From: an uncultured Verrucomicrobiae bacterium
GTDB taxonomy: Bacteria > Verrucomicrobiota > Verrucomicrobiia > Chthoniobacterales > UBA10450
Assembly (NCBI GenBank): GCA_963791565.1
Contig: CAWBSX010000004.1
Location: 372,601 to 436,600, forward strand
Length of the DNA stretch: 64,000 nt
Reading direction: 5' to 3'
Shown: positions 1 to 64,000 of the stretch, one piece after another
Numbering within the stretch: the stretch's first letter is position 1
Layout: the number at the start of each line of letters is the position of its first letter
Translations under genes and position numbers: made by a program
Notes under the pieces: generated by a model
What the model saw: only the letters and a program-made list of their open reading frames with translations
Told to the model about the DNA's origin: nothing
The model's database searches: none

Positions 1-2004
1 CGCAGCCAGGCTAATCGCGCCGACCAGCGCAGCGGCCAAGGCAACGATGCGCATGACATCTGTCACCGCCGCGAAATGTTCCTCGAGCGCTTTTCGAAAA
101 TCGCCGCGCGTTTGAATACTGCTGGAAACGAAGTGCGCATCGAGCAGCGCTTGATCGAGCGCGTTGGAAATCGAATCCGGTGCGTCCGCCGACGTCTTCA
201 CGCGCAGGAGCGTGTTGTTATCGCCCATCGCGGTAATCGCTTCGAATGTCTGATACGTGCCGTAGATAATCGGCGCGCCGATTTCTTCTACCACGCCGAC
301 CACACGCACGGTCTTGCGTCGATCGCGAAAATGAATTTCGAGTTCGCTGCCGACGCGCGCCCCGGCAACAGCTTCCTGCACCAAGCGGTTGATTACGATC
401 GTGTCCGATTCGCCGTTAAGTGGGAGACGTCCCTCTTTCACCGGCAGCTGGAACAAACGCGTCTCCGTCGGATAACCGAGGAGCGAAATCCGCGACGATT
501 CCTGTTGGTTGGTCGCGATGGTAATTGCCGCCGTCCGCCAGGCTTCGGCGATTTCAATCTCTGGAACTTGTCGCGCGACCGCCGTCAATTCGGCGGAAGT
601 CGCCGGGCGTTGCAACTGCACTTGAATGTCGTGAGCCTGATTGCCTAACGAGACGTCAACCACGCGCATCAGGCTTTCGTAAGTGTTGTCCGCAGTCAGC
701 AACATTGCGCCGCCGGCAGACAATGCCAGGAGCGTGATGGTCAGCCGACCGGGACGCCGAAAAGTATTTCGCAACGCAAAGGTCCAGCGGCGATTCCCGG
801 GCATCTTCACCCACCTTGCCGTCCTTCCCGGCGCGACAATTCCCGGTTCTTGAATCGCCTTGTGCGCCGTCATTCGCGCGGCGCGGGCGATTGGCACAAA
901 CATCGCGAGCAACGGAATGGCAAAAGTGAAAAGCAGTTCGAAACGCAGAAGCGAATTCGGCGGCGACCAATCGGCCACATCGATATTGAAAACCGTTTGA
1001 TAATAGCGGACCAGCGCGCGTCCAAGAAATGCGCCCAGGGGAAAAGCAATCGCATTCGCCGCCACGACGATCGGTGCGACCAATCCGAAATATTGTGCGG
1101 CCAGTTGATGCGAACGCGCCCCGAGCGTTTTCATGATTCCGACCTGGCGCACTTCGCGTTTCATCCAGATCGAAACCATGTAGAGGGCGAGCGACGCGCC
1201 GCAGACAAACGCAATCGCGGCGAAGGCCTGCAGCACGCGCAACATCGTGGCCATGAGCGAGGAATGCGGGTGTTGGTCGGGCAAGGCATCGGCGCGTAGC
1301 GGATTTTCGCCGGTCGCCTTAAGCGCATCGCGCAGTTCATGCGCGTAATCAGCCGTGTCGCTTAAGTCACTAGCATTTTTTAGCCTAACGAGTAGTTGAT
1401 CGAGATCTTCACTCTGTCCGATCACGTTCGCCGTCACGCGATTCACATAACCGTAGATCACACGATCCTGCGGGCTCGGCGCGACCGCCGGATCGTGCAC
1501 AAAACCCGCGAACGGAAGCGACGCCGTTCCGCCGCTCGGTTTTCGGATCTGCAACTCTTCGCCAGGTTGGGTCTCGAGCATTGATTGGCCGGATTGCTCG
1601 ATGAAAATTTCGCCGTCAGTTGGCGGCCAGGTTGCATCATGCTGGTGGATTTTGCTCAATCGCTGGCCATCGAAATTTCGCAGCACCGTCAGCCGCATGG
1701 GAAACCATTTTCCTCCTTTGCCAGCAACGCGGCTGAAGACCACACGCCGCGCGTCCACCTCGGCCACGCCTGGTTGCGCTCGAACTTTTTGCAGCAACGC
1801 GGAATTAACTTTGTCGAACCAAACGACGATGTTGGGCGATTCCGATCCGGCGAAACTGCGCGCGACTTCGCGTTGCAAAACGGCACGTGCATTCAAGGCC
1901 GCGACGACACCGGCGGCGCCGAGTGTCAGCACCAAACCGATCAACGCGATCTGCAATCGATGCGCCCGAAAATCGCCAAGAATCTTGCGCCACTGTGTGT
2001 TCAC
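1..2004 (-). CDS. ABC transporter permease, duplicated FtsX/MacB-like architecture (two TM1 + periplasmic domain + 3TM modules); 5'-partial, runs off the window start
   Basis: The minus-strand frame (codons at 3k+1..3k+3) is open from the GTG at 2004..2002 down to position 1; I checked every codon and found no TTA/CTA/TCA triplets on the plus strand in that register. The GTG overlaps the stop of the upstream ATPase as GTGA. Translation reads [34 protein letters not shown]... (TM1), then a periplasmic domain, then FtsX TM2-4. A second module follows, beginning ...FALRNTFRRPGRLTITLLALSAGGAMLL. The gene is not in the supplied ORF track, apparently because it has no stop codon inside the window. 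Confidence 0.8.
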   Translation of the reverse strand, partial: MNTQWRKILGDFRAHRLQIALIGLVLTLGAAGVVAALNARAVLQREVARSFAGSESPNIVVWFDKVNSALLQKVRAQPGVAEVDARRVVFSRVAGKGGKWFPMRLTVLRNFDGQRLSKIHQHDATWPPTDGEIFIEQSGQSMLETQPGEELQIRKPSGGTASLPFAGFVHDPAVAPSPQDRVIYGYVNRVTANVIGQSEDLDQLLVRLKNASDLSDTADYAHELRDALKATGENPLRADALPDQHPHSSLMATMLRVLQAFAAIAFVCGASLALYMVSIWMKREVRQVGIMKTLGARSHQLAAQYFGLVAPIVVAANAIAFPLGAFLGRALVRYYQTVFNIDVADWSPPNSLLRFELLFTFAIPLLAMFVPIARAARMTAHKAIQEPGIVAPGRTARWVKMPGNRRWTFALRNTFRRPGRLTITLLALSAGGAMLLTADNTYESLMRVVDVSLGNQAHDIQVQLQRPATSAELTAVARQVPEIEIAEAWRTAAITIATNQQESSRISLLGYPTETRLFQLPVKEGRLPLNGESDTIVINRLVQEAVAGARVGSELEIHFRDRRKTVRVVGVVEEIGAPIIYGTYQTFEAITAMGDNNTLLRVKTSADAPDSISNALDQALLDAHFVSSSIQTRGDFRKALEEHFAAVTDVMRIVALAAALVGAISLAA

Positions 2005-2720
2005 GAAGGTGACGACCTGTCGGCGATAACGGCGCCGTCCTGTAATTCGATGACGCGATGCGCGCGGCGCGCCAAATTCGCGTCGTGCGTCACGATCATC
2101 AGCGTTTTGTTCTGCGCGATTAGTCCGTGAAAAAGTTCCGTCACGGCCGCGGCTGTTTCGGTGTCGAGATTGCCCGTTGGTTCGTCCGCGAGAACGACCG
2201 GCGGATCATTGGCCAGTGCGCGCGCGATCGCAGCGCGTTGCTGCTGGCCGCCCGATAATGCGGACGGCAATTTATTCGCCTGATCGCTCAGACCGACGAG
2301 CGCGAGCAATTCTTCCGCGCGAGTTCGTCGTTTTTCCGCGGGAATTTTCCCGACAAAGTCCATCGCGAGCAGAATGTTTTCTTCAACCGTGAGTGTCGGC
2401 AGCAGCTGAAAGAATTGGAAAACGATCCCGAGATTGCGGCCGCGCCAGAGCGCCATTTTTGATTCGGTCAATCGATTCAGGCTCTCGCCCGCCGCGCGCA
2501 CGTCGCCGGAGGTAACTCGATCGAGTCCGGCGATGAGATTGAGCAAAGTCGACTTGCCACTGCCGGATTTTCCCAGAACGGCGACGAACTCGCCGCGTGC
2601 CACTCGTAAGGAAACACCACGCAACGCGTGAAACTTGCGGCCGCCCGGTGAAGTATACGACTTCGTCGCAATGTCCAACTCCACGATCGCGGCCGGCCCG
2701 CCATTCGTTAGGCCAGACAT
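2001..2720 (-). CDS. ABC transporter ATP-binding protein (LolD/MacB type)
   Basis: Walker [16 protein letters not shown] signature [15 protein letters not shown] and Walker [13 protein letters not shown] are all present. It sits directly upstream of the permease with a 4-nt overlap. Confidence 0.9.
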
Positions 2721-2723
2721 CGC

Positions 2724-3215
2724 CTAAAAAAATCGGTGACGCTGCAGCGCGAAGAAATCGGTGCCGCTTAATTTGCCCTCCGCATCGAAGCGAAATGTTT
2801 TCGTTCTTGCCGGTCGATCGGCTGAGCGAAACTCGAGAGTGGCGACGCGCACATCGCCGTTGGTTTCAACCTTTGTCACAATTAACTCGTTAGGCGATTT
2901 CGCTTTCACCATCGCCTGCATGAGAAAATCCGTGGCGTTACTTCCTTCCGGCGCGCCTTCGACCGTAAACTTTTCCGAGACGCGCGGCTTCAACGCCGTG
3001 CCATCATGCACACGCATCGCTTCGGCAAAGGCGAGCATGAAATCCATGATCGGCTTGTCGGGCGCGACGTCGGCGGCGAACAAAACATTCGCGACTTTAG
3101 CGTCCGGCGGGCCGGGAGTGGCCGCTGGTTGAGTCCCGTGTATCCATTCTTTCAAACCGCCCTGCGCCCCGGCCATGGAAAAGAAAATGAGAATGAGGGT
3201 GAGTATTTTTTTCAT
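2724..3215 (-). CDS. secreted hypothetical protein, first gene of the ABC transporter operon
   Basis: 163-aa ORF with an N-terminal signal-like hydrophobic segment (MKKILTLILIFFSMAGAQG). Its stop lies 3 nt before the ATPase start. Confidence 0.5.
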   Translation of the reverse strand: MKKILTLILIFFSMAGAQGGLKEWIHGTQPAATPGPPDAKVANVLFAADVAPDKPIMDFMLAFAEAMRVHDGTALKPRVSEKFTVEGAPEGSNATDFLMQAMVKAKSPNELIVTKVETNGDVRVATLEFRSADRPARTKTFRFDAEGKLSGTDFFALQRHRFF

Positions 3216-3314
3216 GGGGAGAACGTGATCTTCTCCGACAAGACTGCGTGCGCCAGCCGGCGGTTACAAAAGTCGTTAGGCGAAAAGCATAAAGTCCAGA
3301 AACATCGGAAGTCT

Positions 3315-3960: not shown

Positions 3961-4261
3961 CATCGACCGCCTTTTTCGCGCGGCTAGTGCTGCGCCTAAC
4001 GAATCGTTGCCGGAAGAAATGCCGTTCGGTTTCGACACACGCGTCTTGGCCAATTGGCGCGCATCACGTTCGAGCAATGGAAATGGTTCGCTGGAATTTG
4101 CGCGTTACTTCAAACGCATTGCCATGGCCGCAGTCGTGGTCGCGGCTTGTGCCGGCACGGGTGCCTTTTGGCAACTGCAGCAAAATGATGATCTCGACGA
4201 AGCGACCGGCGGCGCTTACGCCATGGCCGACAGCGCGATAGAAGCGAACACTTTGCAATGA
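3953..4261 (+). CDS. putative anti-sigma factor (single-pass membrane protein)
   Basis: 102 aa with one TM segment (IAMAAVVVAACAGTGAF). Its start overlaps the sigma-factor stop (ATGTCTAA). Confidence 0.5.
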   Translation: MSNIDRLFRAASAAPNESLPEEMPFGFDTRVLANWRASRSSNGNGSLEFARYFKRIAMAAVVVAACAGTGAFWQLQQNDDLDEATGGAYAMADSAIEANTLQ

Positions 4262-4668: not shown

Positions 4669-4679
4669 TCGACCACTCG

Positions 4680-5672
4680 TTAGGCGAACTCGCGAAAAAT
4701 CTCCGCGCCAATTTCGAACGAGCGCAGCCGCGCCGCGTGATCGAAAATTTGTCCGGTGGCAATTATTTCGTCGGCGCCGGTTTCGTCCAGAATGGATTTT
4801 ACCCGCGTGCGAATGGTCGCGGGCGATCCGATGAGCGCATAACGCATTCGCTCGTCCACGGCCGCGCGCTCCAGCATATTCCACTCAACTTCCATGTCGT
4901 CGACGGGCGGCGGCAATTCGCCGGGCTGGCCGCGCACAAGATTCAAAAACATCAGCTGCGCGGAAGTGGCGATTCGCTGACCTTCTCGGTCGGTCTCCGC
5001 GCCAAAGAGTCCGGCGCCGATCATGACGTAAGGTTTCTGCAACTGCGCCGACGGTTTGAATTCGCTGCGATAAATCTTGAGAGCGACGTGCAGATATTCC
5101 GGCGCGAAATGTGAGGCGAAGGCGAAAGGCAGGCCGAGCTCCGCCGCGAGACGCGCGCTAAAATCGCTCGAGCCTAACAAGTAGAGCGGCACCTTTAAAC
5201 CCGCGCCCGGTACCGCACGCAACCTCTCGTTAGGCGCAGCCGGCTTGAAATAGGATTGCAGTTCGAGAAGGTCTTGCGGAAAAGTCTCGCCGCTGCTGCC
5301 GAGATAACGCCGCAAAGCGCGTGCAGTCAGCTGGTCGCTCCCCGGCGCGCGACCGAGGCCGAGATCGATCCGTCCGGGATAGAGCGATTCCAGCGTGCCG
5401 AACTGTTCCGCGATCACGAGCGGCGCGTGATTCGGCAGCATGATCCCGCCCGCGCCGACGCGAATCTTTTTCGTCGCGCCCGCGACATGACCGATAACGA
5501 TCGACGTCGCCGCGCTCGCGATTCCTGGAAGATTGTGATGCTCCGCTAGCCAGAAGCGATGATAACCCCACTCCTCCGCGTGCCGCGCCAGATCGGCCGT
5601 GTTGCGAAATGCCTGCGACGCGTCACCGCCTTCGACAATCGGTGACAGATCGAGAACGGAATAGAACTGCAT
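4680..5672 (-). CDS. LLM-class (luciferase-like) flavin-dependent oxidoreductase
   Basis: [22 protein letters not shown]...[77 protein letters not shown]. The start is reassigned to the internal ATG at 5672; the track's start at 5759 adds 29 aa that overlap the upstream gene. Confidence 0.8.
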
Positions 5673-6016
5673 CAGGTCCGAACGGACTGCACGATCAGCA
5701 GCACGATATCGAGCAAGGCCACAACGATGATGAAGGCGCCGAATTTCTTCTTGCTCCAATACGGAATGGTCTCGTTAGGCGAAAGCTCCTCTGTGCGCTT
5801 CATCCCGGTCGGCGTCATCTCGAATCGCCAACCGATGATGAGCGCCATGGGAAATCCCAGCGCGACGATGATGATGAAAAACTTGAGCAGACCCGGTGCA
5901 TCCATCATTGGAAAAAAGATCCAGGCGAGATCAATCGCCAGCCAGGCGAGCAACAGGTAAACGACCGTGACCTTGTGCACGTTGCGGCGTCGAAATTCGC
6001 GAAAGAAATTGGTCAT
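5672..6016 (-). CDS. small integral membrane protein (2-3 TM), hypothetical
   Basis: 114 aa with hydrophobic segments. It overlaps the stop of the MBL gene and the start of the LLM gene by 1-4 nt. Confidence 0.5.
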
Positions 6017-6951: not shown

Positions 6952-8022
6952 ATGAGTGCTCTTCGAATTCTCGCGGTTCTGCTCGCCTCGATTGCCATCT
7001 CGTTCGCGGCCGATTATCCGCAGCCGGCCGAAAGTGATTACATCATTAAGGACTTCAAGTTTGCGTCCGGTGAATCCTTGCCGGAATTGCGCATTCATTA
7101 TCGGACTATCGGTAAACCGGATACCGACGCGCACGGGGAAATTCATAACGCCGTGCTGATCACGCACGGCACCACCGGGAGCGGCGCACAATTCGTTAGG
7201 CCGGAATTTGCCGGCGAACTTTTCGGCGCGGGACAGCCGCTCGATGCCGCAAAATTTTTCATCATCCTGCCGGACGGAATCGGCCACGGAAAATCGAGCC
7301 GGCCGAGCGAAGGCTTGCACGCGAAGTTTCCGCGCTACGGCTATCGCGACATGGTCGAAGCGCAGTTCCGTTTGTTAACCGACGGCCTTGGCATCAAACA
7401 CGCGCGGCTCATCATGGGCACATCGATGGGCGGAATGCACACCTGGCTCTGGGGCGAAATGCATCCGGATTTCATGGACGCCCTCATGCCGCTGGCGAGT
7501 TTGCCGACGCAAATTTCCGGTCGCAATCGCGGGTGGCGCAAAACAGTCAGCGACGCTATCCGCAACGATCCCTCCTGGGAAAACGGCGATTACAAGACAC
7601 AGCCGCAGAGTTTGCGCACCGCGGCGGAGATGTTGTGGTTCATGAGCAGCAATCCGGTCTTGCGCCAAACGGAAGCCCCGACTTTGGAGAAGACGGATGA
7701 GGTGCTCGAAAAGTTCGTCGCTGATCATCTGAAAAATGACGACGCGAACGACGTGCTCTATGCAATCGAAGCATCGCGTGATTACGATCCCGGTCCGAAC
7801 CTGGAGAAAATTCGCGCTCCACTTCTCGCGATCAACTCCGCCGATGATCTGATCAATCCGCCTGAGCTCGGAATTCTGGAACGCGAAATCAAACGCGTCC
7901 CGCACGGACGCGCCATCGTTATTCCATTAAGCGACAAGACGCGCGGGCATGGCAGCCACACGCTGGCGGCGTTGTGGAAAGATGAGTTGGTAAAACTACT
8001 GGCCGAATCTACTACTCGTTAG
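6952..8022 (+). CDS. secreted alpha/beta-hydrolase (homoserine O-acetyltransferase-like fold)
   Basis: Signal peptide MSALRILAVLLASIAISFA and nucleophile elbow GTSMGGM. The start is set at the ATG at 6952; the track ORF starts at 6634 but that upstream portion is antisense to the MBL gene. The stop TAG lies inside a copy of the 11-mer word. Confidence 0.75.
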   Translation: MSALRILAVLLASIAISFAADYPQPAESDYIIKDFKFASGESLPELRIHYRTIGKPDTDAHGEIHNAVLITHGTTGSGAQFVRPEFAGELFGAGQPLDAAKFFIILPDGIGHGKSSRPSEGLHAKFPRYGYRDMVEAQFRLLTDGLGIKHARLIMGTSMGGMHTWLWGEMHPDFMDALMPLASLPTQISGRNRGWRKTVSDAIRNDPSWENGDYKTQPQSLRTAAEMLWFMSSNPVLRQTEAPTLEKTDEVLEKFVADHLKNDDANDVLYAIEASRDYDPGPNLEKIRAPLLAINSADDLINPPELGILEREIKRVPHGRAIVIPLSDKTRGHGSHTLAALWKDELVKLLAESTTR

Positions 8023-9103
8023 GCCGAATTCCGCGTTGCGTCACCAGATAGACCGCGAAACTGCCTAACCAGTGGCCACCTTCGTAATGTTCGCCGGTGA
8101 CGGCGGCTAACCCCGCGCGACGATGCGCCGCGGCCGCGGCTTGCAAAGCACCACGGCGCGAATCGTCTTTGGGCAAAACGGAAAGAATTCCTTCCAGCAT
8201 CCAGGCACGGCTTAGATTCAAGCCGTCGAGGTGCGCCAACTTTGGATCGCTCGGATCCGGCGAGACAGCTATTGGCAGCCAGTCGATCTTGGACTCGTTA
8301 GGCAATTGCGGCAGAAAATCCTTCAGCCATTTCGCAAAATCATCCGCTGGAAGAACGCGGCGCATGACGTCCGCTTCCGCCAAACAGGGCGAAAGAAAAT
8401 CTTCCCCGGAAGGTTCGTAAGCCAGGGGCGCGTTCTTGTCGGCGTCGAAAAATTGTCTGGCCTTTGCGCTCACCAGTTTCGCGAACTCTTCGTTCTTAAC
8501 CACGCGCGCGTAGTCCAGCATCAAGCCCAGGGAAAAGGCCGTTTGATTGTGTTCGCCGATGCGAATTGGGTGAGAAAGTTTCGGCAGCCAGTTCGTTAGG
8601 CGCTCAAGCGCGGCCGTTTCGACCGGCTGCAAGTTTGTCGATAATTCGCGTGCCTCCGGATCATCCCATTCGCGCAATTCGGCGCAGAGTTGCAGCAACC
8701 ATGCTAATCCATATGGCCGCTCGAAACTGGCGCGACCTTCGCCGCGCAAATAGGCCGCCTCCTGTTTGAGATTCTCCGCGCTCAAACTCTTGCGCAGTGC
8801 TTCGCGCGCCGCGGCCGCGAAAGGCGCATCGGGAAATGTTCTCGTCAGGCGAACGAGCAACCAATGGCCGTGCACGGAGGAATGCCAGTCGTAACAGCCG
8901 AAAAATGCCGGCGTCAGTTTGCGCGGCGGCGCGACATCGGCGTCGCTGTTCAAATTGTGGCTGATCTTGTTCGGATACTCTTTGGCGACGCAGGCGAGCG
9001 CCAGATCGGCGAAACGTTGCGCGGCTGCGACATCGAATTTCGGCGAAGATTCTTCCGCCATAACCACGAGCGGGAGCAAAAATAGAAATGCGCACGTTTT
9101 CAC
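8012..9103 (-). CDS. secreted hypothetical protein (DUF2891-like?)
   Basis: 363 aa with a signal peptide MKTCAFLFLLPLVVMA and conserved-looking YDWHSSVHGHW. The family assignment is from memory only. Confidence 0.45.
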   Translation of the reverse strand: MKTCAFLFLLPLVVMAEESSPKFDVAAAQRFADLALACVAKEYPNKISHNLNSDADVAPPRKLTPAFFGCYDWHSSVHGHWLLVRLTRTFPDAPFAAAAREALRKSLSAENLKQEAAYLRGEGRASFERPYGLAWLLQLCAELREWDDPEARELSTNLQPVETAALERLTNWLPKLSHPIRIGEHNQTAFSLGLMLDYARVVKNEEFAKLVSAKARQFFDADKNAPLAYEPSGEDFLSPCLAEADVMRRVLPADDFAKWLKDFLPQLPNESKIDWLPIAVSPDPSDPKLAHLDGLNLSRAWMLEGILSVLPKDDSRRGALQAAAAAHRRAGLAAVTGEHYEGGHWLGSFAVYLVTQRGIRPNE

Positions 9104-10481: not shown

Positions 10482-10492
10482 GCCTAACGAGT
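10482..10492. repeat. representative copy of the hyper-abundant 11-mer GCCTAACGAGT (plus-strand reading), 4 nt after the SDR gene stop
   Basis: Exact match. See findings for the full set of about 90 copies. Confidence 0.9.
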
Positions 10493-10947: not shown

Positions 10948-10980
10948 TCGTGGCGTTGCTAAACGCCTAACGAGTCCTGC

Positions 10981-20966: not shown

Positions 20967-20971
20967 TCTGC

Positions 20972-47022: not shown

Positions 47023-47071
47023 CTTTCCTTTTTTCTGGTCTCGTTAGGCGCGCACTGCCACTCTCCGCCGC

Positions 47072-47587: not shown

Positions 47588-47601
47588 GCAGCTACTTCGC
47601 T

Positions 47602-50538: not shown

Positions 50539-50554
50539 CGAGTGCCTAACAAGT
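50533..50554. repeat. tandem pair GCCTAACGAGT-GCCTAACAAGT at the end of the PEP-CTERM gene; the gene's TAA stop is inside the first copy
   Basis: Direct tandem of two copies (the second has one mismatch). Confidence 0.9.
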
Positions 50555-53600: not shown

Positions 53601-54678
53601 TACGCGCAATTTTATTTCCGGCAACAACGATCGCGGCGTGCTTATCGACGGCGCCAACGCGAGCGGAAATGTCGTGCAAGGAAACACCATCGGCCTTGAT
53701 ATTACCGGCACCGCGCGACCGAATGGAAATACCGGCGTGGAATTCTTCACCGGTTCCCACGCGAACACGATCGGCGGCAGCGCGTTTGGCGCGAGCAATC
53801 AAATCGCGAGCAACACGAACGATGGTATTCGGGTTTACGACAGCGGCACCGACGGCACCAACATGATGGCGCTCCTTGGGAATTCCATTTTCAACAACAG
53901 CGCTCTCGGAATCGATTTGCTCTACGGCAATAGCGGTCCGCAGCATCCGAACAATCAGCAGGCCGCGCCGACCTTGAGTTCCGCGGTGCTCGGCTCCGCC
54001 AGTAACATCAGTGGCACCGATGTCAGCGGCACGTTGAACAGCACGGCCAGCACAACTTTCCGCATCGAATTTTTCGCCAGCCCGGGCGGGACGAGTCAGG
54101 GGAAAAATTTTATCGGTTCAACTAGTGTGACCACGAACGGTTCTGGTTCCGCTTCGTTTGCTTCGCTGCATCTCGCCGCCGCCGTTCCGATCGCGCCCGT
54201 GCAAAGTGGCGGCAGCGTGATCACGGCGACCGCGACTGATCCAAGCAACAATACGTCGCAATTTTCCGCACCGGTTGCGGTAACTGCGACCGATAGCGGT
54301 GGCGCGGGAATTCCCGATAACTGGATGGTTGCACACTTTGGCCCCACTTGGCAGACGAACCCGAGCGCAGCGCCGAATGCGGATCCGGACGGTGACGGCC
54401 TAACGAATGCTCAGGAATTTCTCGCCGGAACCGATCCAAAATCAGGTGGCAATTCGCTGCACATCACGGCCATCGCGCGCAGCGGCATAGACCGGCTCGT
54501 CGCCTTCGCTTCCGTGACCGGAAAAACTTATCGCGTCGATTACAAAGATGATCTGCTCAGCGCGAATTGGATTCTGCTGCAAGATCAACTCAACGCCACA
54601 GGCAACAGCACACAAATCACCGACACTGGCGCGGGAAATCTCGCCCGCCGTTTTTATCGCATCGCGCTCGATCAGTAG
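50691..54678 (+). CDS. large secreted protein: N-terminal astacin-like (M12A) zinc metalloprotease + long right-handed parallel beta-helix repeat region + C-terminal DPDGDG domain; one apparent frameshift near 53320
   Basis: Signal peptide. HEVGHAIGLWHEQQRPDRDTYV (HExxHxxGxxHE...RxDRD) and the Met-turn SVMHY. More than 20 repeats of about 22 aa (NxIGG(L)TSxxRNIISGNxxxGIxIxNSGTNGNxVxGNYIG). The two track ORFs (50691..53375 and 53221..54678) join as ...GTDANV(T)TAVGNVPEGVSIYNGAQNN. Confidence 0.75.
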
Positions 54679-55828: not shown

Positions 55829-56641
55829 ATGGCCGAAACAGATTACGTCCTCGGCACGCACGATGAAGAAGTCGCGCGGCTCGGCCTGCAACATCGCGTC
55901 TGGCGACCGGTCGTGACCGAATGCTGGCAGCGCGCCGGCATTACCGACGGCTGGCGCGTCATCGACATCGGCGCAGGACCGGGTTACGCCACCGCTGACC
56001 TCGCGGAAATTGTCGGACCGACCGGCGCTGTTCTCGGCATCGAACGCTCGGCGCGTTTTCTCGAAGCCGCACGCGATCGTTGCGCGCGTCGCGGCCTGAC
56101 GAATGTCAAATTCCGCGAGAGCGACCTGATGGAGCTCTCGTTAGGCAATCTCAATTACGACGCCAGCTGGTGTCGCTGGGTCGCGTCATTTGTTTCATCG
56201 CCGAAACTCCTGGTCGAAAAAATTGCCGGCGCCTTGCGCAAAGGCGGCATCGCCATTTTTCACGAGTACAGCGACTACGAAACGTTTTGCTTCATGCCGC
56301 TTCGTCCGGCGATCGAAAACTTCCGGCGCGAGGTCGCATCGAGCTGGCGCGCCAGTGGCGGCGAACCCGATGTCGCGCGTCAGTTGCCGGGACTGCTGCG
56401 CGACGCGGGAATGCGCGTGCGCGAAATCCGGCCGCGCGTCATCACCATTTCACCGCACGATTATGCCTGGCAATGGCCGGCGAGCTTCATCGAGATTAAC
56501 GTCCTGCGTTTACAGGAGCTCGGTCGCCTAACGAGTGAACAAGGCGCGGAGGCCTTGCGCGAATTTCACGAAGCCAATGCTGATCCCGAGTCCTGGTTCA
56601 CCACGCCGATGTTTCTCGAAATCGTGGCGGAGAAAAAATGA
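55829..56641 (+). CDS. class I SAM-dependent methyltransferase
   Basis: Motif I VIDIGAGPGYAT, post-I acidic residue, and motif II region. 270 aa. Confidence 0.8.
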   Translation: MAETDYVLGTHDEEVARLGLQHRVWRPVVTECWQRAGITDGWRVIDIGAGPGYATADLAEIVGPTGAVLGIERSARFLEAARDRCARRGLTNVKFRESDLMELSLGNLNYDASWCRWVASFVSSPKLLVEKIAGALRKGGIAIFHEYSDYETFCFMPLRPAIENFRREVASSWRASGGEPDVARQLPGLLRDAGMRVREIRPRVITISPHDYAWQWPASFIEINVLRLQELGRLTSEQGAEALREFHEANADPESWFTTPMFLEIVAEKK

Positions 56642-57893
56642 AACGACTGCTCGTTTCGTTTTTGTTGTTCACTGCGATCGCTCGCGCCGACCAGCCTATC
56701 CTGTTGAAACCAGCCGCCGTTTTCGACGGACAGGAAATGCATCCCGGTTGGTCGGTCTTGATAAATGGAGACAAAATTTCTGCGGTCGGGCAGCGGATGT
56801 CTCCGCGCCGGCGGACGCGCGCACGATCGAGTTGCCTAACGAGACCTTGATGCCGGGAATGATCGAAGGTCATTCGCACATGTTCCTTCACCCGTACAAC
56901 GAGACGAGTTGGAACGAGCAGGTGACTAACGAATCGTTGGCCTTGCGCACTGCGCGCGCCACTGTGCATGCGCGCAAAACTTTGGAAGCTGGTTTCACCA
57001 CCGCGCGCGATCTCGGGACGGAAGGCGCCGGTTATGCCGATGTCGGACTGAAGCAGGCGATCGATAGCGGAATTATTCCCGGTCCGCGTCTCATCGTGGT
57101 TACGCGCGCGATCGTCGCGACGAAAAGTTACGGGCCGAAATACGCGAGCGAACTCGACGTTCCGCAAGGCGCGCAGGAATGCAGCGCCGTCGATGAATGT
57201 ACCCGCGTGACGCGCGAGCAAATCGGCAAAGGCGCGGACTGGGTGAAGGTCTACGCCGATTATCGCTGGACGCCTAACGAGTCATCGCGCCCGACATTTT
57301 CGCAGGAAGAATTAAATGCGATCGTGCAGACAGCTCGTTCTGCGGGTCGGCCGACTGTGGCGCACGCCACAACCGCGGAAGGAATGCGTCGCGCGATTAA
57401 CGCCGGCGTGGACTCCATTGAGCACGGCGATGAAGGAACCGCGGAAGTGTTCCGTTTAATGAAACAAAAAAACGTCGCGTTTTGCCCGACGGTCGCTGCG
57501 GGCGATGCCGTCTCCCGTTATCACGGCTGGAAAAAAGGAACGGATCCGGATCCACCGCGCATCGCGCAAAAACGCGCGAGCATGAAAGCCGCGCGCGAAG
57601 CCGGCGTGACCTTTGCGATGGGCGGCGATGTCGGCGTTTTCACTCATGGCGAGAACGCGCTCGAAATGGAATTGCTCGTGCACGAGTACGGCTTCACGCC
57701 TCTGGAAGTGTTGCGCCAGGCGACGAGCGGCAACGCCGCCGTGTTCCATCTCACCGACCGAGGACTCGTTAGGCCAAATTTGCTCGCCGATCTCGTGGGT
57801 GTGGAAGGCGATCCGACGCGCGACATCGATCTTGTGCGCAAAGTAAAGTTCGTCATGAAAGGCGGGACAGTCGTGCCTTTGCCTAACGAGTGA
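56638..57893 (+). CDS. secreted amidohydrolase-family metal-dependent hydrolase, one apparent frameshift near 56790
   Basis: Signal peptide MKRLLVSFLLFTAIARA...ISAVG, then in the other frame DVSAPADARTIELPNETLMPGMIEGHSHMF (HxH). Later metal ligands (VAHATT..., IEHGDEG..., GGD) are present. ATGA overlap with the methyltransferase. Confidence 0.8.
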
Positions 57894-58727
57894 TGGAAAC
57901 ACCCGACGCTCTCCCGCCAAAACCAAAACGTTGGCCGGTCGCGCTGCTGGTCGGCTTCATCAGTGCGATCATCGGCGCGGCGATCTCCGCGCCCGTCTCC
58001 GACTGGGCGATGCAGATGCATCACGTTTCCGCGCGCGAAGGCGAACGCGGGTATGCGGTCATGTGCCTCTGGATACCGCTTGCGTTTGTCATCTGTTTCG
58101 TCGCTGGATTTGTCGTTAGTCTGCTAATCAAGCGCAGCGGTTTCGTCGGTTATTTGCTGCGCCAAGGTGCGGCGCTCGCCATTGTTCTATTTTGGTCGGC
58201 GATCGGGCGCCGTTGGTTACGCCACCGCCGATCATCCGCCGTTGGTCGATGGAAAAAATCTCGCGCTCGAAATCGAAGTGCGCGTGCCACGCAAAGGTCG
58301 ATCCATCGAAGATTTGAAAAAAGCCGATTTCAGTGTTGCGCTCGTCGTCTCAAATTCCGATCGCAGTTATTCCGACATGCGTTGGACGGAAGCGAGCGAG
58401 TCTAACGAAACCATCACTATTCCCGCCTGGGCCAATTTGAATTCGCGCAACGCTGGCCGCGAAATCACCGCCGGCATAAAAGATGAGAACCGGCAAATCT
58501 TTAACGTCATGCGTCGCGCCTCGCCTGCGATCGATGAAGCCTGGTCGGAATGGGAACCGCCGCGCGAGCGGTTCGATGGCAGCAAGCCGGCGCCGGGAGA
58601 TCAATATCAGGTTCGCTATCGCGTGCGTTTCGCGGGCGAATACTCACCGACCCCGCGACCGACGCTTACTTACGAGCCATCGACCCCGGAAGAAACGGCG
58701 TCGCCTAACGAGTCGTCGTCGCCATAG
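57893..58727 (+). CDS. hypothetical membrane-anchored protein, one apparent frameshift near 58205
   Basis: N-terminal TM-rich part (ALLVGFISAIIGAAISAPV..., MCLWIPLAFVICFVAGFVVSLLI) from ORF 57890..58405 continues as AVGYATADHPPLVDGKNLALEIEVRVPRKGRSIEDL... in ORF 58167..58727. Confidence 0.4.
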
Positions 58728-60163
58728 TGCGCGATCGTCGCATCGAGTTCATTCTGGTCCTGTGCGCCGCCGTCATGATTGGCGCGCGGATTTTTGGACC
58801 AAGCGCGTTGCAGCGACAGGATCAACCCCGCACTGCTTCCTACACGGCCGACATCGCGGCGAATGATCGTTGGCTGCTACCGCGCGACATGCTCGGCAAC
58901 ACCGCCACGAAACCGCCGCTGGTGAATTGGTTGGCCGCGCCACTGCTTAAGCTGGGTTTCTGGACGGAATTCGCGGTGAAATTACCAATGCTGCTCGCCA
59001 GCCTCGCGACACTCGCGCTCACAATCTGGTTCGCCAACCATTCGTTAGGCAATCGCGATCTCGCCTACCTCGCCGGCATCGTCTGGCTGGTGAATCCCGC
59101 GAACATCAACATGATTTACCATTGCCGGCCCGATCCGGTGCTGATCGCGTTTCTCACCGCCGCGTGGATTCTCGCGACGCGAATCATTCGCGACGAAAAT
59201 CCGGCGCGTGGAATCGTCGCCGGTTTTTGGATTTGCGTCGGACTAGCCGGCCTAACGAAAGGTCCAGCCGCACTCGTTGCGGTCATTTATCTTCCACTGG
59301 CGGCGCGTTTGATCGGCGGGCGTTGGTCAACCGCCAATCGCAGCCAGTGGTGGTGGGGCCTTCCGCTGGCCGCGGCAATTTTCTGCGCGTGGGCCATTCC
59401 GTGCGCCCTTCGTTATCCGGACGCCTTCTACAAAACGCTCGTCGGTCACGAGCTGCTCGCGCACTCCTTAGGCCTCGGCCAGCAATTCGGTAACAATCAT
59501 CTCACGAGCGAAGGACCAATCGCCGCGTTGAAATTGATCTGGCAGAATCCGGTCTGGTTCGTCACGCGATTTGCGCCGTGGTCATTAGCTACCGTGGCCG
59601 CACTCATCGTCATCGGCGCGCGCCAGTGGTTCCGTCATGAACTCGCGCCGGCCATTCTTTGGTTGCTCGTCGTTCTGTGTTTCTTCGCGCTCTCCGCGCA
59701 CAAAACGGCCGATTACATTCAGCCTGCATTTCCGGCCGCCGCTATTCTCGCCGCCTGGTTCTTTCAATATCTTCGCGTTCCGTTACGCATCGTCGCGATC
59801 GCATCACTTCTCTTTGCCATCGGACTCGCGCTGCATTTCGTTTTCCTCAGCAATTTCTCGCGCGATCGGCGCGGCGAAGATGTAAAAGCCTTCGCGCGTG
59901 ATGTGAGTGCCATCGTCCACGACGATCCGGTTGTTTTCGCCGGCACCGGCTACAACACGCTCGAATTATTTCTGCGTCGTTGTCAGCCGAGCATGTTGCC
60001 GTCGGCGGAAGAAAAGGCGCGGGCGAAATGGATGGTGGCGCCGTTGTTGCCGGGAATTCCGGCGGAAATTGTTTCGAAGCGATTACCAACCGCGCCGATT
60101 TCGCGCAGTGTTATTCTCGGTTTGTATCCGATGGATCGGGTGCGAGATCGCATCGAGAAATGA
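58727..60163 (+). CDS. polytopic membrane protein, putative GT-C glycosyltransferase (GT39/ArnT-like)
   Basis: 478 aa, more than 10 hydrophobic segments. GTG start overlapping the previous stop (TAGTG). The family assignment is weak. Confidence 0.4.
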   Translation: MRDRRIEFILVLCAAVMIGARIFGPSALQRQDQPRTASYTADIAANDRWLLPRDMLGNTATKPPLVNWLAAPLLKLGFWTEFAVKLPMLLASLATLALTIWFANHSLGNRDLAYLAGIVWLVNPANINMIYHCRPDPVLIAFLTAAWILATRIIRDENPARGIVAGFWICVGLAGLTKGPAALVAVIYLPLAARLIGGRWSTANRSQWWWGLPLAAAIFCAWAIPCALRYPDAFYKTLVGHELLAHSLGLGQQFGNNHLTSEGPIAALKLIWQNPVWFVTRFAPWSLATVAALIVIGARQWFRHELAPAILWLLVVLCFFALSAHKTADYIQPAFPAAAILAAWFFQYLRVPLRIVAIASLLFAIGLALHFVFLSNFSRDRRGEDVKAFARDVSAIVHDDPVVFAGTGYNTLELFLRRCQPSMLPSAEEKARAKWMVAPLLPGIPAEIVSKRLPTAPISRSVILGLYPMDRVRDRIEK

Positions 60164-62970
60164 CTTCGATCGAAAAGAAATTGCGGACCGCAGATTGCGA
60201 TGTCGCCTTCGACAATCTTACGCGCCAACTCTTCGCCAGCGATGCCTCCTTATATCAAATCGAACCGCTCGGCGTCGCATATCCGCGCAGTCCGCAGCAG
60301 GCGCGCTCGATCATAACTACCGCGGCCGAGGCCGGCATCTCCGTCATTCCGCGCGGCGCCGGCAGCGGACTTTCTGGCGGCGCGATTGGCGATGGATTGA
60401 TCGTCGATTTCTCGCGCTTCAATCGCGAGATCAGTGCGTTTGATTTGGAGAAACGAACGGTGCGCATCGGTGCCGGCGTCGTGCTCGATCAACTCAACGC
60501 CTTCTTGAAGCCACACGGCTTTTGTTTTGGTCCGGACGTAGCGACGAGTTCGCGCGCCACGCTCGGCGGCATGATCGCGAACAATTCTTCCGGCGCGCGT
60601 GTGCCGGTTTACGGCACGACGGCTGATCATGTCGTCGCGCTCGAAGTGGTCCTGGCTGATGGCCGGATTGAAAACATTTCGACGAACAACCACTCGTTAG
60701 GCGCGGAACACCAATTCATCGCGCAGCTCGTGCAGCGTCACGCCGCTGACATCGCGGAATGGATGCCGCCGGGAATGTTGAAACGCTGGAGCGGCTATGG
60801 GCTCGCGCGTTTTCTTAATGAGCCGAACGACTTAACGGAGATCTTTTCGGCGAGTGAAGGAACGCTCGGCGCGATTTGTTCTGCCGAACTCAACATCGTG
60901 CCACTGCCGCGGGAAAAAGGTTTGGGCCTGGTGTTTTTCGCGTCGGTCGCCGAGGCGATGCAAGCGACGGTCGAATTGCTGGACCTCAAGCCATCGGCCA
61001 TCGAGCACATCGACAAGCCACTCTTCGATCAGACGAAGGGTCAGCTTCTTTTCCAGGCCGCGCGCGATTTGATGGAGCTCGATACGAAACCGTGCGAAGC
61101 GATCTTGATCGTCGAATTCTACGAAGATGTCGCCGCGTGCCTAACGACACTCGCATCGAAACAGCTCGGGCTTCGCACCTTGATCTGCAAAAACGCGGCG
61201 GAGATGAATCTCATCTGGGCGATGCGCAAAGCCGGATTGTCGCTCCTGACCGGCCGGGTCGGTCCCGCGAAGCCGGTGGCTTTCATCGAAGATGCCGCCA
61301 TTCCACCGCACAAGCTGCCGGAATACGTCGCGGGCTTGAGATCGCTCATGGATCCGCTCGGTCTCGAGGTTTGTTATTACGGCCACGCCGCCACCGGACT
61401 ATTACACGTGCGGCCGGTGCTCGATCTGCGGCGAGCAGATGACCTGCGGAAGTATCGGCAAATCGCCGACGGAGTTTCAGCACTCGTTAGGCAATTCAAA
61501 GGCTCGCTCGCCGGTGAGCACGGCGTGGGCATCGCGCGGACTGAATACATGCGCGCACAAGTGGGCGACGAATTGTTCGGTGTCATGCGCGAGATCAAGC
61601 GCCTCTTCGATCCGAAGAATCTTTTTAATCCGGGGAAATTGATCGGCGACGGCGAATTCAAAGTCGATTCGCATTTGCGCAGCACCTACACCTCGCATCC
61701 GACGCTGCCGTTTGAACCACGCCTCGCGTTCGCGTTTAAAGATGGTTCGTTCATCGGCAATCTCGAGCAGTGCAATGGCTGCGGCGGGTGTCGCAAAGAT
61801 GCGCCGACGATGTGTCCAACTTTCCTCGCTACCGGTGAGGAATACATGTCGACGCGCGGTCGCGCCAATGCCATCCGCGCCGCGCTGGAATTGCGCACGG
61901 ACAATCATGATCCCCTGCGCGCGCATGAGTTGGAAAAAGCGCTGAGCAACTGTCTTTCGTGCAAAGCTTGCACGACGGAGTGTCCGTCGAACGTCAATCT
62001 GGCATTGCTCAAGGCCGAGCTGCTTTATGCGCGCCACCGACGCGATGGTTTGCCGCTGCGCGAACGAATGCTGAGTGCGGTGGACTTGTTAAGCAAGCTC
62101 GGTTGTCTCGCTCCGCGTCTGGCCAACGCCACGCTGGAAAATCGATTCGTGCGCGGGTTGATGCAGAACTCGTTAGGCATTTCGGCGAAACGACCCTTGC
62201 CGCATTATGCGCGGGAGCGTTTCGATAAATGGTTCGTGAAACATTCGCCGACGAAAACGACGCGAGGGCGTGTGATTCTTTGGGATGACACCTTCGTCCG
62301 CTATCATGAACCGAACATCGGCATCGCCGCCGTAACGGTTCTGGAGTCGTTAGGCTTCGAAGTTGCGCTGGCGAAGAATCGGAAATGCTGCGGACGTCCG
62401 GCGTTCAGTCAGGGAAACATCGATGAAGCCAAACGGCTCGGTCAGCATAATCTCGCGCTGCTGAAGGGATCCGACGCACCGATTCTGTTTCTGGAACCTT
62501 CGTGTTACTCAATGTTCGCGGAAGATTATCGCGAGATGAATTTGACCGACGCGGTGGCCGTTGCGCCACGCGCATTTCTCTTCGAACGATTCGTCGAAGA
62601 CATTCTCGAACGCGAACCGAATGCGTTGCACCTCAAGCAAACCGCGGGACACGTCGCAATCCATGCGCATTGTCACGCCAAAGCGCTGATGAAGCCCGAC
62701 TTTATGAAGCAGCTCGCGCAACGTTTGCCCGGCAGAAAGGTGGAGCTACTCGACACCGGCTGCTGCGGAATGGCGGGCGCATTTGGCGCGCTGGAATCAA
62801 AATACGAATTATCGCTACAAGTGGCGGAACCACTCGTTAGGCAAGTTGAGGCGCAACCGAACGAGACGACAATCGTCGCCTCTGGCACGAGTTGCCGTCA
62901 TCAAATCGAACATCTCACGACCGCCAAGCCGCAGCACATGGCAGAGTTACTGGCCGATGCCTTAGTCTGA
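60160..62970 (+). CDS. FAD-linked oxidase fused to 4Fe-4S and CCG (heterodisulfide-reductase-like) domains, YdiJ/GlcD-GlcF-fusion type
   Basis: Start set at MTSIEKKL (ATGA overlap with the upstream gene). FAD-binding PCMH domain (PRGAGSGLSGGA), then C-x2-C-x2-C-x3-CP clusters (CNGCGGCRKDAPTMCP, CLSCKACTTECP), and two CCG-like regions (CCGRP, GCCGMAG). Confidence 0.8.
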   Translation: MTSIEKKLRTADCDVAFDNLTRQLFASDASLYQIEPLGVAYPRSPQQARSIITTAAEAGISVIPRGAGSGLSGGAIGDGLIVDFSRFNREISAFDLEKRTVRIGAGVVLDQLNAFLKPHGFCFGPDVATSSRATLGGMIANNSSGARVPVYGTTADHVVALEVVLADGRIENISTNNHSLGAEHQFIAQLVQRHAADIAEWMPPGMLKRWSGYGLARFLNEPNDLTEIFSASEGTLGAICSAELNIVPLPREKGLGLVFFASVAEAMQATVELLDLKPSAIEHIDKPLFDQTKGQLLFQAARDLMELDTKPCEAILIVEFYEDVAACLTTLASKQLGLRTLICKNAAEMNLIWAMRKAGLSLLTGRVGPAKPVAFIEDAAIPPHKLPEYVAGLRSLMDPLGLEVCYYGHAATGLLHVRPVLDLRRADDLRKYRQIADGVSALVRQFKGSLAGEHGVGIARTEYMRAQVGDELFGVMREIKRLFDPKNLFNPGKLIGDGEFKVDSHLRSTYTSHPTLPFEPRLAFAFKDGSFIGNLEQCNGCGGCRKDAPTMCPTFLATGEEYMSTRGRANAIRAALELRTDNHDPLRAHELEKALSNCLSCKACTTECPSNVNLALLKAELLYARHRRDGLPLRERMLSAVDLLSKLGCLAPRLANATLENRFVRGLMQNSLGISAKRPLPHYARERFDKWFVKHSPTKTTRGRVILWDDTFVRYHEPNIGIAAVTVLESLGFEVALAKNRKCCGRPAFSQGNIDEAKRLGQHNLALLKGSDAPILFLEPSCYSMFAEDYREMNLTDAVAVAPRAFLFERFVEDILEREPNALHLKQTAGHVAIHAHCHAKALMKPDFMKQLAQRLPGRKVELLDTGCCGMAGAFGALESKYELSLQVAEPLVRQVEAQPNETTIVASGTSCRHQIEHLTTAKPQHMAELLADALV

Positions 62971-62995
62971 CAATTGTCATCGCCTAACGAGTGAT

Positions 62996-64000
62996 TCAGA
63001 ACGGAATTTTTATTCCGAGATTCTTAACCAGGAACGAAAGTTGATCGGTCACATCTTCGATCACTTTCGAAGTCGGCTTGCCCGCACCATGTCCGGCGCG
63101 TGTTTCGATGCGAATCAAAACCGGGGCTGGTCCGGCTTGATCGGCTTGCAGCGTGGCAGCGAACTTGAAGCTGTGTCCGGGAAAAACGCGGTCGTCGTGA
63201 TCGGCGGTCGAGACCAGAGTGGGCGGATATTTCGTTCCCGGTTTGATGTTATGCAGCGGCGAATATTTGTAGATCGCCTTGAATTGCTCCGGATCATCCG
63301 ACGAGCCGTAGTCGCTCGCCCACGCCCAGCCGATGGTGAATTTCTGGAAACGCAGCATGTCCATCACGCCGACGGCTGGTAACGTCGCGCCCCAGAGATC
63401 GGGACGTTGCGTAAGCGCGGCACCGACCAGCAAACCACCATTGCTGCGTCCGCTGATCGCGAGCTTCGGCGTGGAAGTATATTTGTTCGCGATCAGCCAT
63501 TCGCCGGCGGCGATGAAATCATCGAAGACATTTTGCTTTTGCAATTTCGTTCCAGCGAGATGCCATTCCTCGCCGTACTCGCCGCCGCCGCGCAAATTCG
63601 CGACTGCATAAATACCGCCCATATCGAGCCAGGTGGCCGCGTAGGGTGAGAATGTCGGCACGCTGGAAAGATCGAATCCGCCGTAGCCGTAAAGGATGGT
63701 TGGATTGTTGCCGTTTTTCTTCAGATCTTTGCGATGGGTCAGGAACATCGGCACGCGCGTGCCGTCTTTGCTTTTGTAGAAAACCTGTTCGGTCGTGTAG
63801 TCGTCCGATTTGAAATCGATCTTCGGTTGAAACAGGACGCTGCTCTTACCACTCGTTAGGTCGCAGCGGAAAATCGTCGGCGGCTGCGTGTAGCTGACAT
63901 AACTGTAGAAGGTCTCCTTGTCCTTGCGCTTGCCCGTGAGTCCGCCGGCGGTGCCGAGACCGGGCAAGGCGATTTCGCCCGCGGGTTTGCCCGTGAGATC
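62996..64000 (-). CDS. prolyl oligopeptidase (S9A) catalytic domain; N-terminus beyond the window end
   Basis: GGEYGEEWH..., nucleophile GRSNGGLLVGA, ...TADHDDRVFPGHSFKF...RAGHGAG. The ORF is open to the window edge. Confidence 0.85.
   Translation of the reverse strand, partial: DLTGKPAGEIALPGLGTAGGLTGKRKDKETFYSYVSYTQPPTIFRCDLTSGKSSVLFQPKIDFKSDDYTTEQVFYKSKDGTRVPMFLTHRKDLKKNGNNPTILYGYGGFDLSSVPTFSPYAATWLDMGGIYAVANLRGGGEYGEEWHLAGTKLQKQNVFDDFIAAGEWLIANKYTSTPKLAISGRSNGGLLVGAALTQRPDLWGATLPAVGVMDMLRFQKFTIGWAWASDYGSSDDPEQFKAIYKYSPLHNIKPGTKYPPTLVSTADHDDRVFPGHSFKFAATLQADQAGPAPVLIRIETRAGHGAGKPTSKVIEDVTDQLSFLVKNLGIKIPF

Follow-up and report, generated by a model that had tools for sequence, protein, structure and literature searches.

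A dense, strand-neutral chromosomal word in Chthoniobacterales genomes as a candidate analogue of DNA uptake sequences

Uptake sequences, whose defining property is that DNA bearing them is preferentially taken up, offer the clearest example of how the way in which a genome exchanges genes can shape that genome. Two types of uptake signal sequence (USS) exist in different Pasteurellaceae subclades, and dialects of the DNA uptake sequence (DUS) have reportedly been described among the Neisseriaceae. A 2025 survey defines uptake sequences by, and knows them from, these two proteobacterial families only, and places about half of DUS and USS in terminators, often as inverted pairs; our literature search found no uptake sequences reported outside the two families. 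The DUS is a conserved word in permissive surroundings that recently acquired Neisseria genes do not carry (PMC2397512). HIP1 (GCGATCGC), a word of cyanobacteria, is 15-300-fold over-represented, can exceed one copy per gene and is periodically distributed (PMC5861425); HIP1 is reported to be a palindromic 8-mer and the target of cognate methyltransferases. Here we describe the abundance, anatomy, DNA-level action, evolutionary dynamics and phylogenetic distribution of a word, GCCTAACGA, in 64,000 nucleotides of ordinary chromosomal DNA (the window: assembly GCA_963791565.1, contig CAWBSX010000004.1, positions 372,601 to 436,600) from a bacterium of the Chthoniobacterales (Verrucomicrobiota), the order to which 'Ca. 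Udaeobacter', a soil genus dominant worldwide, belongs. Because the word matches uptake sequences point by point, we take a functional analogue of the DUS/USS type, a sequence that enhances DNA uptake, to be the likeliest reading, and give it a probability of about 0.5 on the strength of sequence comparison.

Abundance, shape and placement of the word

A core copy is defined here as the 9-mer GCCTAACGA and an exact 11-mer as GCCTAACGAGT, the form into which the 9-mer is extended in the window; the data span 64 kb of host genome and ~20 kb per relative locus. Exact search of the window retrieved 65 core copies (31 on the plus strand and 34 on the minus strand) and 37 exact 11-mers, in agreement with the about 34 and about 30 copies that the original prediction, made by eye from this DNA, had counted on the two strands. 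Dinucleotide shuffles of the window contained the 9-mer 0.36 times and the 11-mer 0.00 times, and Markov models of order 1-5, fitted after masking of the word, predict 0.2-1.7 and 0.007-0.06 copies, respectively. Over-representation is about 40- to 300-fold for the 9-mer and >600-fold for the 11-mer, so the enrichment first noticed by eye persists against a Markov background, and the GCCTAACGA family is the commonest among all 8- to 11-mers of the window. Near-copies are abundant, as had been claimed, but exceed the 25-30 first put forward, with 43 sequences that lie one mismatch away from the 9-mer and 39 from the 11-mer, the latter against an expectation of 0.3 in Markov-1 simulations.

The copies are balanced between the strands (31/34, P = 0.80) and with respect to the orientation of the host gene (28 sense and 21 antisense, P = 0.39), and their spacing is near random (mean 974 nt, coefficient of variation (CV) 0.90). 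A polarity of the type seen in Chi or in FtsK-orienting polar sequences (KOPS) is ruled out by this split in 64 kb, which for this window upholds the earlier statement that none exists, and a motif acting at the RNA level is ruled out by strand neutrality relative to genes. Alignment of the 65 copies yielded a ~16-nt consensus, TyGCCTAACGAGTssT, in which GCCTAACGAGT, not self-complementary and hence non-palindromic, is flanked by T at -2, Y at -1, S at +11 and +12, and T at +13 (50/65 copies). No conservation extends beyond this motif in the flanks of the 65 window copies, which are unique, and a search of the flanks found no co-motif and no fixed partner; helically phased AT-rich flanks were not found around the copies in the window. 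Among near-copies pooled over 371 kb of word-rich loci, positions 3-7 and 9 (CTAAC.A) are almost invariant, and change is tolerated at positions 1, 2, 8, 10 and 11, an information profile that looks like that of a protein-binding site. At the internal CpG the pooled near-copies are asymmetric, with G8 changed to A 12 times and C7 to T once, which could be due to unequal functional tolerance, or to strand-specific methylation and deamination.

Inside genes lie 49 of the 65 copies (75%), and 16 are found between genes or across gene ends, a distribution over coding sequence, in various frames, and spacers that had been recognized from the start. Non-coding and gene-edge DNA makes up 8% of the window on an approximate gene map (92% coding), so that these 16 sites represent a 3-fold excess (P = 5e-5). 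The copies inside genes are spread about evenly over all four stop-free frames (L-T-S/N 12, P-N-E 16, S-L-G 10 and L-V-R 11), and the frames avoided are those that read the word's TAA (forward) or TAG (reverse). The use of four frames in both gene orientations places the signal in the DNA rather than in peptide or messenger RNA, and also rules out a repeated peptide as its origin. Coding the word is costly: it forces rare codons (CTA, 3% of Leu; CCT, 7% of Pro; TTA, 5% of Leu; AGG, 3% of Arg), and the tripeptide PNE occurs 22 times in the open reading frames (ORFs) of the window against 2.2 expected, a tenfold excess, with CCTAACGAG coding 14 of the 22 (0.31 expected). L-V-R (24 versus 9.1 expected) and S-L-G (17 versus 9.4) are in about twofold excess. 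Ten copies have a stop codon within 10 nt, against a random mean of 1.3 (maximum 7 in 2000 trials), an about 8-fold excess that is partly built into ORFs defined by their stops, and at least seven genes have their stop codon supplied by the TAA or TAG within the word; in genes that end in the word, Pfam domain coverage is complete up to their ends. Start codons in the window have no excess of copies nearby.

Conservation, turnover and dialects among relatives

Relatives were collected by a one-genome-per-species scan with the window's sigma-54 response regulator, which gave 80 loci (labelled L001 and so on). Nearly all are metagenome-assembled genomes (MAGs) labelled Chthoniobacterales, Spartobacteria, 'Ca. 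Udaeobacter' or Verrucomicrobiota, and the best protein match is 92% identical. In L001, L004, L040, L061, L063 and L072 no 9-mer is more frequent than this word, and many other loci are enriched in it too; the original prediction had proposed to look for it in sister MAGs, and there it reaches 0.5-1.8 copies per kb. It is found at positions orthologous to those in the window in MAGs from at least six unrelated projects and assemblers. Aligned sites that do not hold the word in a relative are mostly of equal length and differ by few substitutions (for example, CTGCCTAACGAACGGT versus CTGCCGACCGAACGGT), and copies therefore arise by point mutation, not insertion. An origin from insertions, miniature inverted-repeat transposable elements or repetitive extragenic palindromes is ruled out by these equal-length wordless orthologues, the unique flanks and the 75% of copies in frame inside genes. 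In the IMG/VR database the pattern TTGCCTAACGAGTSST occurs in 19 contigs with one copy each, which is chance level, so that viruses show no enrichment, in a collection that offers no known phage of this host for comparison.

Word sites are kept more often than background 9-mers in the window and L001 (9/15 versus 0.17), in L061 and L063 (18/20 versus 0.40), and in L040 and L063 (9/18 versus 0.10), amounting to site conservation of 50-90% against a background of 10-40% (P from 2e-4 to 6e-6 for these pairs, and down to 4e-8 when all comparisons are counted). Of 15 relatives aligned at 35020, in the rpoA/rplQ spacer, 10 have the 8-nt core CCTAACGA exactly there, as do 12 of 17 at 39753, in scpB, in genomes whose DNA is otherwise about 75-80% identical. 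Across nine genome pairs, per-base identity averages 0.883 in the word, is down to 0.785-0.788 over the neighbouring 20-30 nt and stands at 0.822 in controls, and the word is thus a conserved element within locally permissive DNA. Sites also turn over, as 3 of the 14 L040 sites aligned to the window are common to both.

On the response-regulator tree, two clades carry the core densely (0.4-1.8 per kb); it is weak yet above chance (0.1-0.3 per kb) in a peat 'palsa' clade and essentially absent from a lower-GC Udaeobacter-type clade, with densities (0 to 1.8 per kb) that track phylogeny. The window's own clade, clade A, carries GCCTAACGAGT..T, that is, a 3' extension GT..T; the other dense clade, clade B, has no GT..T and shows a weak 5' ttc, (ttc)GCCTAACGA. 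The two forms are dialects around a common 9-nt core. A second, unrelated dispersed word, cAAGATCGACAw (AAGATCGACA), is present at up to 2 per kb in a sister lineage (L057, L044, L024, L045, L037, L058 and L052); it is strand-balanced, occurs in several frames, and its sites are kept in 20 of 24 cases against a background of 0.29. Some of its copies form same-orientation pairs 15-16 nt apart (L057 3902/3918, 7124/7140, 18324/18339 and 19405/19420; L044 14665/14680). Other frequent 9-mers, AACGTCCAA, AAGCTCCAA and ACTCCGACT (in L012, L014 and L041), proved to be short-period tandem repeats with spans of ~2.6-4.7 kb and not dispersed words.

The densest genome, L040 (1.8 copies per kb), has one significant word-free gap, which coincides with a 5.6-kb resistance-nodulation-division (RND) efflux cassette (L040:4402-9982) encoding a hypothetical protein, an AcrB-type pump and a membrane-fusion protein. 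The cassette is inserted between histidine kinase and response regulator genes, is absent from the other 79 loci and has an atypical tetranucleotide composition (r = 0.913 versus 0.965-0.978). It holds no copy of the word against 13.7 expected (P about 1e-6). Being recent and wordless, it indicates that newly arrived DNA comes without the word, an outcome obtained from one island for the comparison with recently acquired DNA that had been suggested at the outset.

Gene content of the window and list of copies

The window encodes MacB/FtsX permeases, carB, rpoA, rplQ, scpB, a phosphoglucosamine-mutase-like protein, the sigma-54 response regulator, a sulfatase-family protein, a PEP-CTERM protein and an astacin/beta-helix protein. 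All copies of the word are listed in Table 1, together with features cited below. Every example coordinate of the original prediction holds an exact or one-mismatch copy, except that one placed at 12718-12727 was off by 2-3 nt and belongs at 12720-12730. In the beta-helix protein, GGLTS repeats are indeed coded by GGCCTAACGAGT, but three times (52191, 53016 and 53208) rather than the four originally reported.

The rpoA gene is split across frames by two 1-nt indels visible in the sequence itself, of which one adds an A to an A-run, and carB is likewise split, as judged from the ORF map only; both look like residual long-read assembly error, not true pseudogenes, and the rpoA indels are not located at word sites. 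An SPFH/Band-7-like gene is preceded by a cyclic di-AMP (c-di-AMP) riboswitch (Rfam RF00379, 53.7 bits). Four MacB-type FtsX permease genes of ~800 aa each are tandem paralogues, and a fifth is accompanied by its ABC ATPase.

Table 1 Core copies and exact 11-mers of the word in the window, with further features (CDS, coding sequence; SDR, short-chain dehydrogenase/reductase).
Feature	Position	Strand	Setting	Frame	Kept in
core copy	643..651	+	antisense in CDS 1-2004(-)	S-L-G	
exact 11-mer	1383..1393	+	antisense in CDS	L-V-R	
core copy	2705..2713	-	sense in ABC ATPase gene 2001-2720(-)	L-T-N	
exact 11-mer	2885..2895	-	sense in CDS 2724-3215(-)	P-N-E	
core copy	3273..3281	-	intergenic (3215/3364)		
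core copy	3994..4002	+	sense	P-N-E	
exact 11-mer	4675..4685	-	between convergent genes; its TAA is stop of 4680-5672(-)		
core copy	5227..5235	-	sense in luciferase-like monooxygenase gene	P-N-E	
core copy	5772..5780	-	sense	P-N-E	
core copy	7193..7201	-	antisense in hydrolase gene 6634-8022(+)	(F)V-R	
exact 11-mer	8014..8024	-	convergent gene ends; complement TAG is stop of 6634-8022(+); also codes final residues of 8012-9103(-)	P-N-E	
exact 11-mer	8293..8303	-	sense in DUF2891 gene	P-N-E	
core copy	8593..8601	-	sense	L-T-N	
exact 11-mer	10482..10492	+	begins 4 nt past stop of SDR gene 9759-10478		
exact 11-mer	10965..10975	+	intergenic, upstream of MacB gene		L001, L002
core copy	12001..12009	-	antisense in MacB gene	S-L-G	
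exact 11-mer	12720..12730	-	antisense	L-V-R	
inverted pair TCGTTAGG-9 nt-CCTAACGA	12722-12746		inside MacB gene; partner 8-nt core 12739-12746		
core copy	16953..16961	-	antisense	V-V-R	
exact 11-mer	18434..18444	+	intergenic, begins 4 nt past stop of 15998-18430		
exact 11-mer	19423..19433	-	antisense	L-V-R	
exact 11-mer	19665..19675	-	antisense	S-L-G	
core copy	20634..20642	-	antisense	V-V-R	
core copy	20697..20705	+	sense	L-T-R	
exact 11-mer	20970..20980	+	complement TAG is stop of phosphoesterase gene 20972-21424(-)		
core copy	23363..23371	+	sense	L-T-N	
core copy	25146..25154	+	sense in SufE-like gene	P-N-E	
core copy	27661..27669	-	complement TAG ends ORF 27209-27667 (fragment of frameshifted carB)		
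exact 11-mer	29816..29826	-	antisense in CN-hydrolase gene	S-L-G	
exact 11-mer	31050..31060	-	intergenic, just upstream of c-di-AMP riboswitch		
exact 11-mer	32955..32965	+	sense in HD-domain gene	L-T-S	
exact 11-mer	33403..33413	+	sense	P-N-E	
core copy	34431..34439	-	intergenic		
core copy	34519..34527	+	intergenic		L001 (8-nt core)
exact 11-mer	35020..35030	+	between rpoA stop and rplQ start		
exact 11-mer	37390..37400	+	antisense in TPM-domain gene	L-V-R	L001, L040
exact 11-mer	39751..39761	-	sense in scpB	P-N-E	
core copy	41691..41699	+	antisense	S-L-G	L001, L011, L006
exact 11-mer	45771..45781	-	sense in sulfatase-family gene	P-N-E	L002
exact 11-mer	46252..46262	-	sense	L-T-S	
core copy	47041..47049	-	intergenic		L001
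core copy	47581..47589	-	between convergent genes; complement TAG is stop of 47072-47587(+)		L001
core copy	48700..48708	+	antisense in peptidase S9 gene; equal-length sequence, 2-3 substitutions off, in four other relatives	S-L-G	L001
exact 11-mer and G8A near-copy GCCTAACAAGT, head-to-tail	50533..50554	+	TAA is stop of PEP-CTERM gene 49756-50538		
exact 11-mer	50909..50919	-	antisense in astacin/beta-helix gene	L-V-R	L001
exact 11-mer	52192..52202	+	sense, beta-helix repeat	G-L-T-S	
exact 11-mer	52538..52548	+	sense	P-N-E	
exact 11-mer	53017..53027	+	sense, beta-helix repeat	G-L-T-S	
exact 11-mer	53209..53219	+	sense, beta-helix repeat	G-L-T-S	
core copy	54398..54406	+	sense	L-T-N	
core copy	56138..56146	-	antisense in methyltransferase gene	S-L-G	
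exact 11-mer	56526..56536	+	sense	L-T-S	
core copy	56834..56842	+	sense in amidohydrolase gene	P-N-E	
exact 11-mer	57272..57282	+	sense	P-N-E	
exact 11-mer	57764..57774	-	antisense	L-V-R	
exact 11-mer	57881..57891	+	codes final residues before TGA stop of 56748-57893	P-N-E	
exact 11-mer	58703..58713	+	sense, 16 nt from ORF end	P-N-E	
core copy	59042..59050	-	uncertain gene calls (PMT_2 glycosyltransferase gene area)		
core copy	59250..59258	+	uncertain gene calls		
exact 11-mer	60692..60702	-	antisense in FAD-oxidase/Fe-S gene 59980-62970	S-L-G	
core copy	61139..61147	+	sense	L-T-T	
exact 11-mer	61482..61492	-	antisense	L-V-R	
exact 11-mer	62168..62178	-	antisense	S-L-G	
core copy	62347..62355	-	antisense	S-L-G	
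exact 11-mer	62832..62842	-	antisense	L-V-R	
exact 11-mer	62982..62992	+	intergenic, between convergent genes 59980-62970(+) and 62996-64000(-)		
MacB-type FtsX permease (fifth)	1-2004	-			
ABC ATPase of the fifth permease	2001-2720	-			
four tandem MacB-type FtsX permease genes	10981-20863	+			
carB	25540-28750	+	split across frames		
c-di-AMP riboswitch	31114-31265	+	upstream of SPFH/Band-7-like gene		
SPFH/Band-7-like gene	31349-32653				
rpoA	35032-36072	-	split across frames		

Possible readers of the word and comparison with known systems

From these patterns we infer a protein that recognizes the word and would act in DNA uptake. A sequence-specific DNA receptor belonging to a transformation apparatus would bind double-stranded DNA bearing the ~16-nt consensus, mainly through its invariant CTAAC.A core; the most plausible candidates would be a part of a pilus or pseudopilus exposed at the surface, or a DNA-binding protein of the periplasm. 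In Neisseria, the receptor is ComP. Fragments from kin would be preferentially taken up and then recombined, and the resulting bias, possibly together with selection, would slowly turn near-matches into matches where these are tolerated, that is, in intergenic DNA, at gene 3' ends and at weakly constrained codons in any stop-free frame, while existing copies would be retained. Shifts of receptor specificity between lineages could then produce the dialects and the second word. It is about an even bet that the Chthoniobacterales own such a sequence-specific form of DNA self-recognition, independent of that in Neisseriaceae and Pasteurellaceae, in which words turn over and two specificities can coexist.

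Several observations weigh against a role in uptake. No competence or pilus genes were found within the 64-kb window, and the literature yielded no report of natural competence in Verrucomicrobiota. A pilin-signature regular expression applied to 1.35 Mb of loci returned one pilin-like ORF (L060), which does not bear on the matter because all the loci sample the same neighbourhood. The word does not contribute to hairpins or inverted pairs (fold energy -16.1 at sites versus -16.9 kcal/mol at random positions) and has no terminator association in the window, despite its excess at stop codons; the uptake-signal reading of the original prediction is thus borne out in almost every sequence signature examined, the exception being the terminator hairpins typical of uptake sequences. 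Frame choice is not guided by preferred codons, unlike that of USS and DUS. Both words are carried by L057 and L044, at independent positions and both conserved, and two co-resident unrelated words have no precedent among uptake sequences. Finally, conservation, permissive placement and absence from new DNA would also be expected of a selected intracellular site, a case that has been made for HIP1 (PMC5861425).

The main rival is a HIP1-like intracellular word that is bound by an abundant chromosomal protein and kept by selection, with no part in uptake; HIP1 shares both the hyper-abundance and the site conservation. We consider this unlikely, though worth serious attention, and the candidate binders, equally tentative, would be a nucleoid-associated, condensin-loading or repair-related protein or a defence 'self-tag' protein. 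Conservation well above background, within and between genes, agrees with it, and site conservation is the argument for selection and a nucleoid role of HIP1 (PMC5861425). The resemblance to a protein-binding site, the absence from the recent insertion and the lack of known competence in the phylum fit equally, and two co-resident words are easily explained by two DNA-binding proteins. However, the spacing is near random (CV 0.90) rather than regular, a structuring role would not obviously give dialects, word replacement and densities of 0 to 2 per kb among syntenic close relatives, and the cost in rare codons and peptides fits drive better than a dispensable architectural role. The word is also unlike any known class of nucleoid or segregation site in being non-palindromic, dense and unbiased: we know of no such site that is a non-palindromic 9-16 nt word at ~1 per kb without orientation bias, parS, matS, SlmA-binding sites (SBS) and Noc-binding sites (NBS) being palindromic and sparse, and KOPS and Chi skewed.

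A still smaller chance attaches to a functionless by-product of repair or conversion, whether by context-specific mismatch nicking, repair like that of very short patches (VSP) or biased conversion. Such a process would account for copies that arise by substitution, for their slow accumulation in resident rather than new DNA despite the coding cost, and for the asymmetry of near-copies at the internal CpG (G8 to A 12, C7 to T 1). Yet an enrichment of 100-fold or more for a 9-16 nt motif exceeds the effects of known VSP-type systems, which recognize 4-6 nt and whose influence on word frequencies stays below a few fold, and no candidate enzyme was seen in the window. Moreover, strong positional conservation points to selection and not to neutral replenishment according to Xu et al. 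(PMC5861425), and the same is seen for GCCTAACGA. As for an artefact, watermark, engineered sequence, mobile-element footprint or repeated peptide, assembly-type indels do occur in the window (rpoA and carB are frameshifted) and three copies do sit in repeats of one beta-helix protein. This explanation has a negligible probability, since the same word stands at orthologous positions in MAGs of independent projects and assemblers, and a library, assembly or engineering origin, which the original prediction had wanted excluded, is therefore set aside. In addition, the flanks are unique beyond ~16 nt with no co-motif, copies lie in frame, using four different frames and both orientations, within genes that are intact and supported by Pfam, and the rpoA frameshifts are not at word sites.

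Should the preferred reading of an uptake-sequence analogue be true, this would be the first uptake-sequence system outside the Proteobacteria and the first hint of natural transformation in Verrucomicrobiota, and kin-biased transformation would be implied in soil members of the phylum. Full-text literature searches with both orientations of the word returned primers and unrelated matches, none in this context. Dialects, a co-resident second word and lineages with a decaying word would offer a natural comparison for drive versus selection, word-bearing DNA might aid genetic manipulation or the tracking of gene flow, and the word could be a simple marker for MAG binning and for spotting recently acquired DNA. 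If the word does not serve uptake, it would represent a new class of non-palindromic, strand-neutral chromosomal word with its own reader, and even an intracellular reader protein would provide a new, experimentally tractable system of DNA-protein recognition.

Compared with named systems, the word is closest to uptake sequences. Like the DUS (AT-GCCGTCTGAA, 10-12 nt, Neisseriaceae), it is non-palindromic, present at about 1 per kb in both orientations and enriched outside coding sequence and at gene ends, has an invariant inner core with outer positions that vary between related lineages, and is highly conserved within locally more divergent DNA. Unlike the DUS, it is not paired into inverted repeats or terminators, has an unrelated sequence in an unrelated phylum, can share a genome with a second unrelated word, and has 75% of its copies in coding sequence against 34.5% in N. 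meningitidis (PMC2817400). With the USS (AAGTGCGGT, Pasteurellaceae) it shares a 9-nt core with weaker flanking positions, a mostly intragenic location (65% in H. influenzae versus 75% here), the use of several frames and an inflation of the encoded tripeptides (PMC2817400). Its proteome distortion is stronger in this sample (PNE about 10-fold versus about 2-fold), it forces rare codons into genes, while the frame in which a USS is read correlates with codon preference (PMC2817400), and its flanks are not AT-rich and helically phased. HIP1 is similar in lying within and between genes at sites conserved between genomes, which implies maintenance (PMC5861425). The non-palindromic 9-16 nt motif and its near-random spacing in the window set GCCTAACGA apart from HIP1. 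Chi, KOPS and architecture-imparting octamers are likewise short, non-palindromic, over-represented chromosomal words, and DNA-processing proteins recognize Chi, KOPS and strand-skewed octamers; these words are strongly skewed per replichore strand and modestly over-represented, in contrast to the 31/34 split in 64 kb and the >100-fold enrichment by most background models described here. Given its host and its unrelated sequence, the word can only be an analogue, not a homologue, of DUS and USS. We would class it as a new and independent variant within the uptake-sequence kind. What seems new in it would be its occurrence in another phylum, the lack of a link to terminators, a greater cost to coding and the presence of a second word beside it in some genomes.

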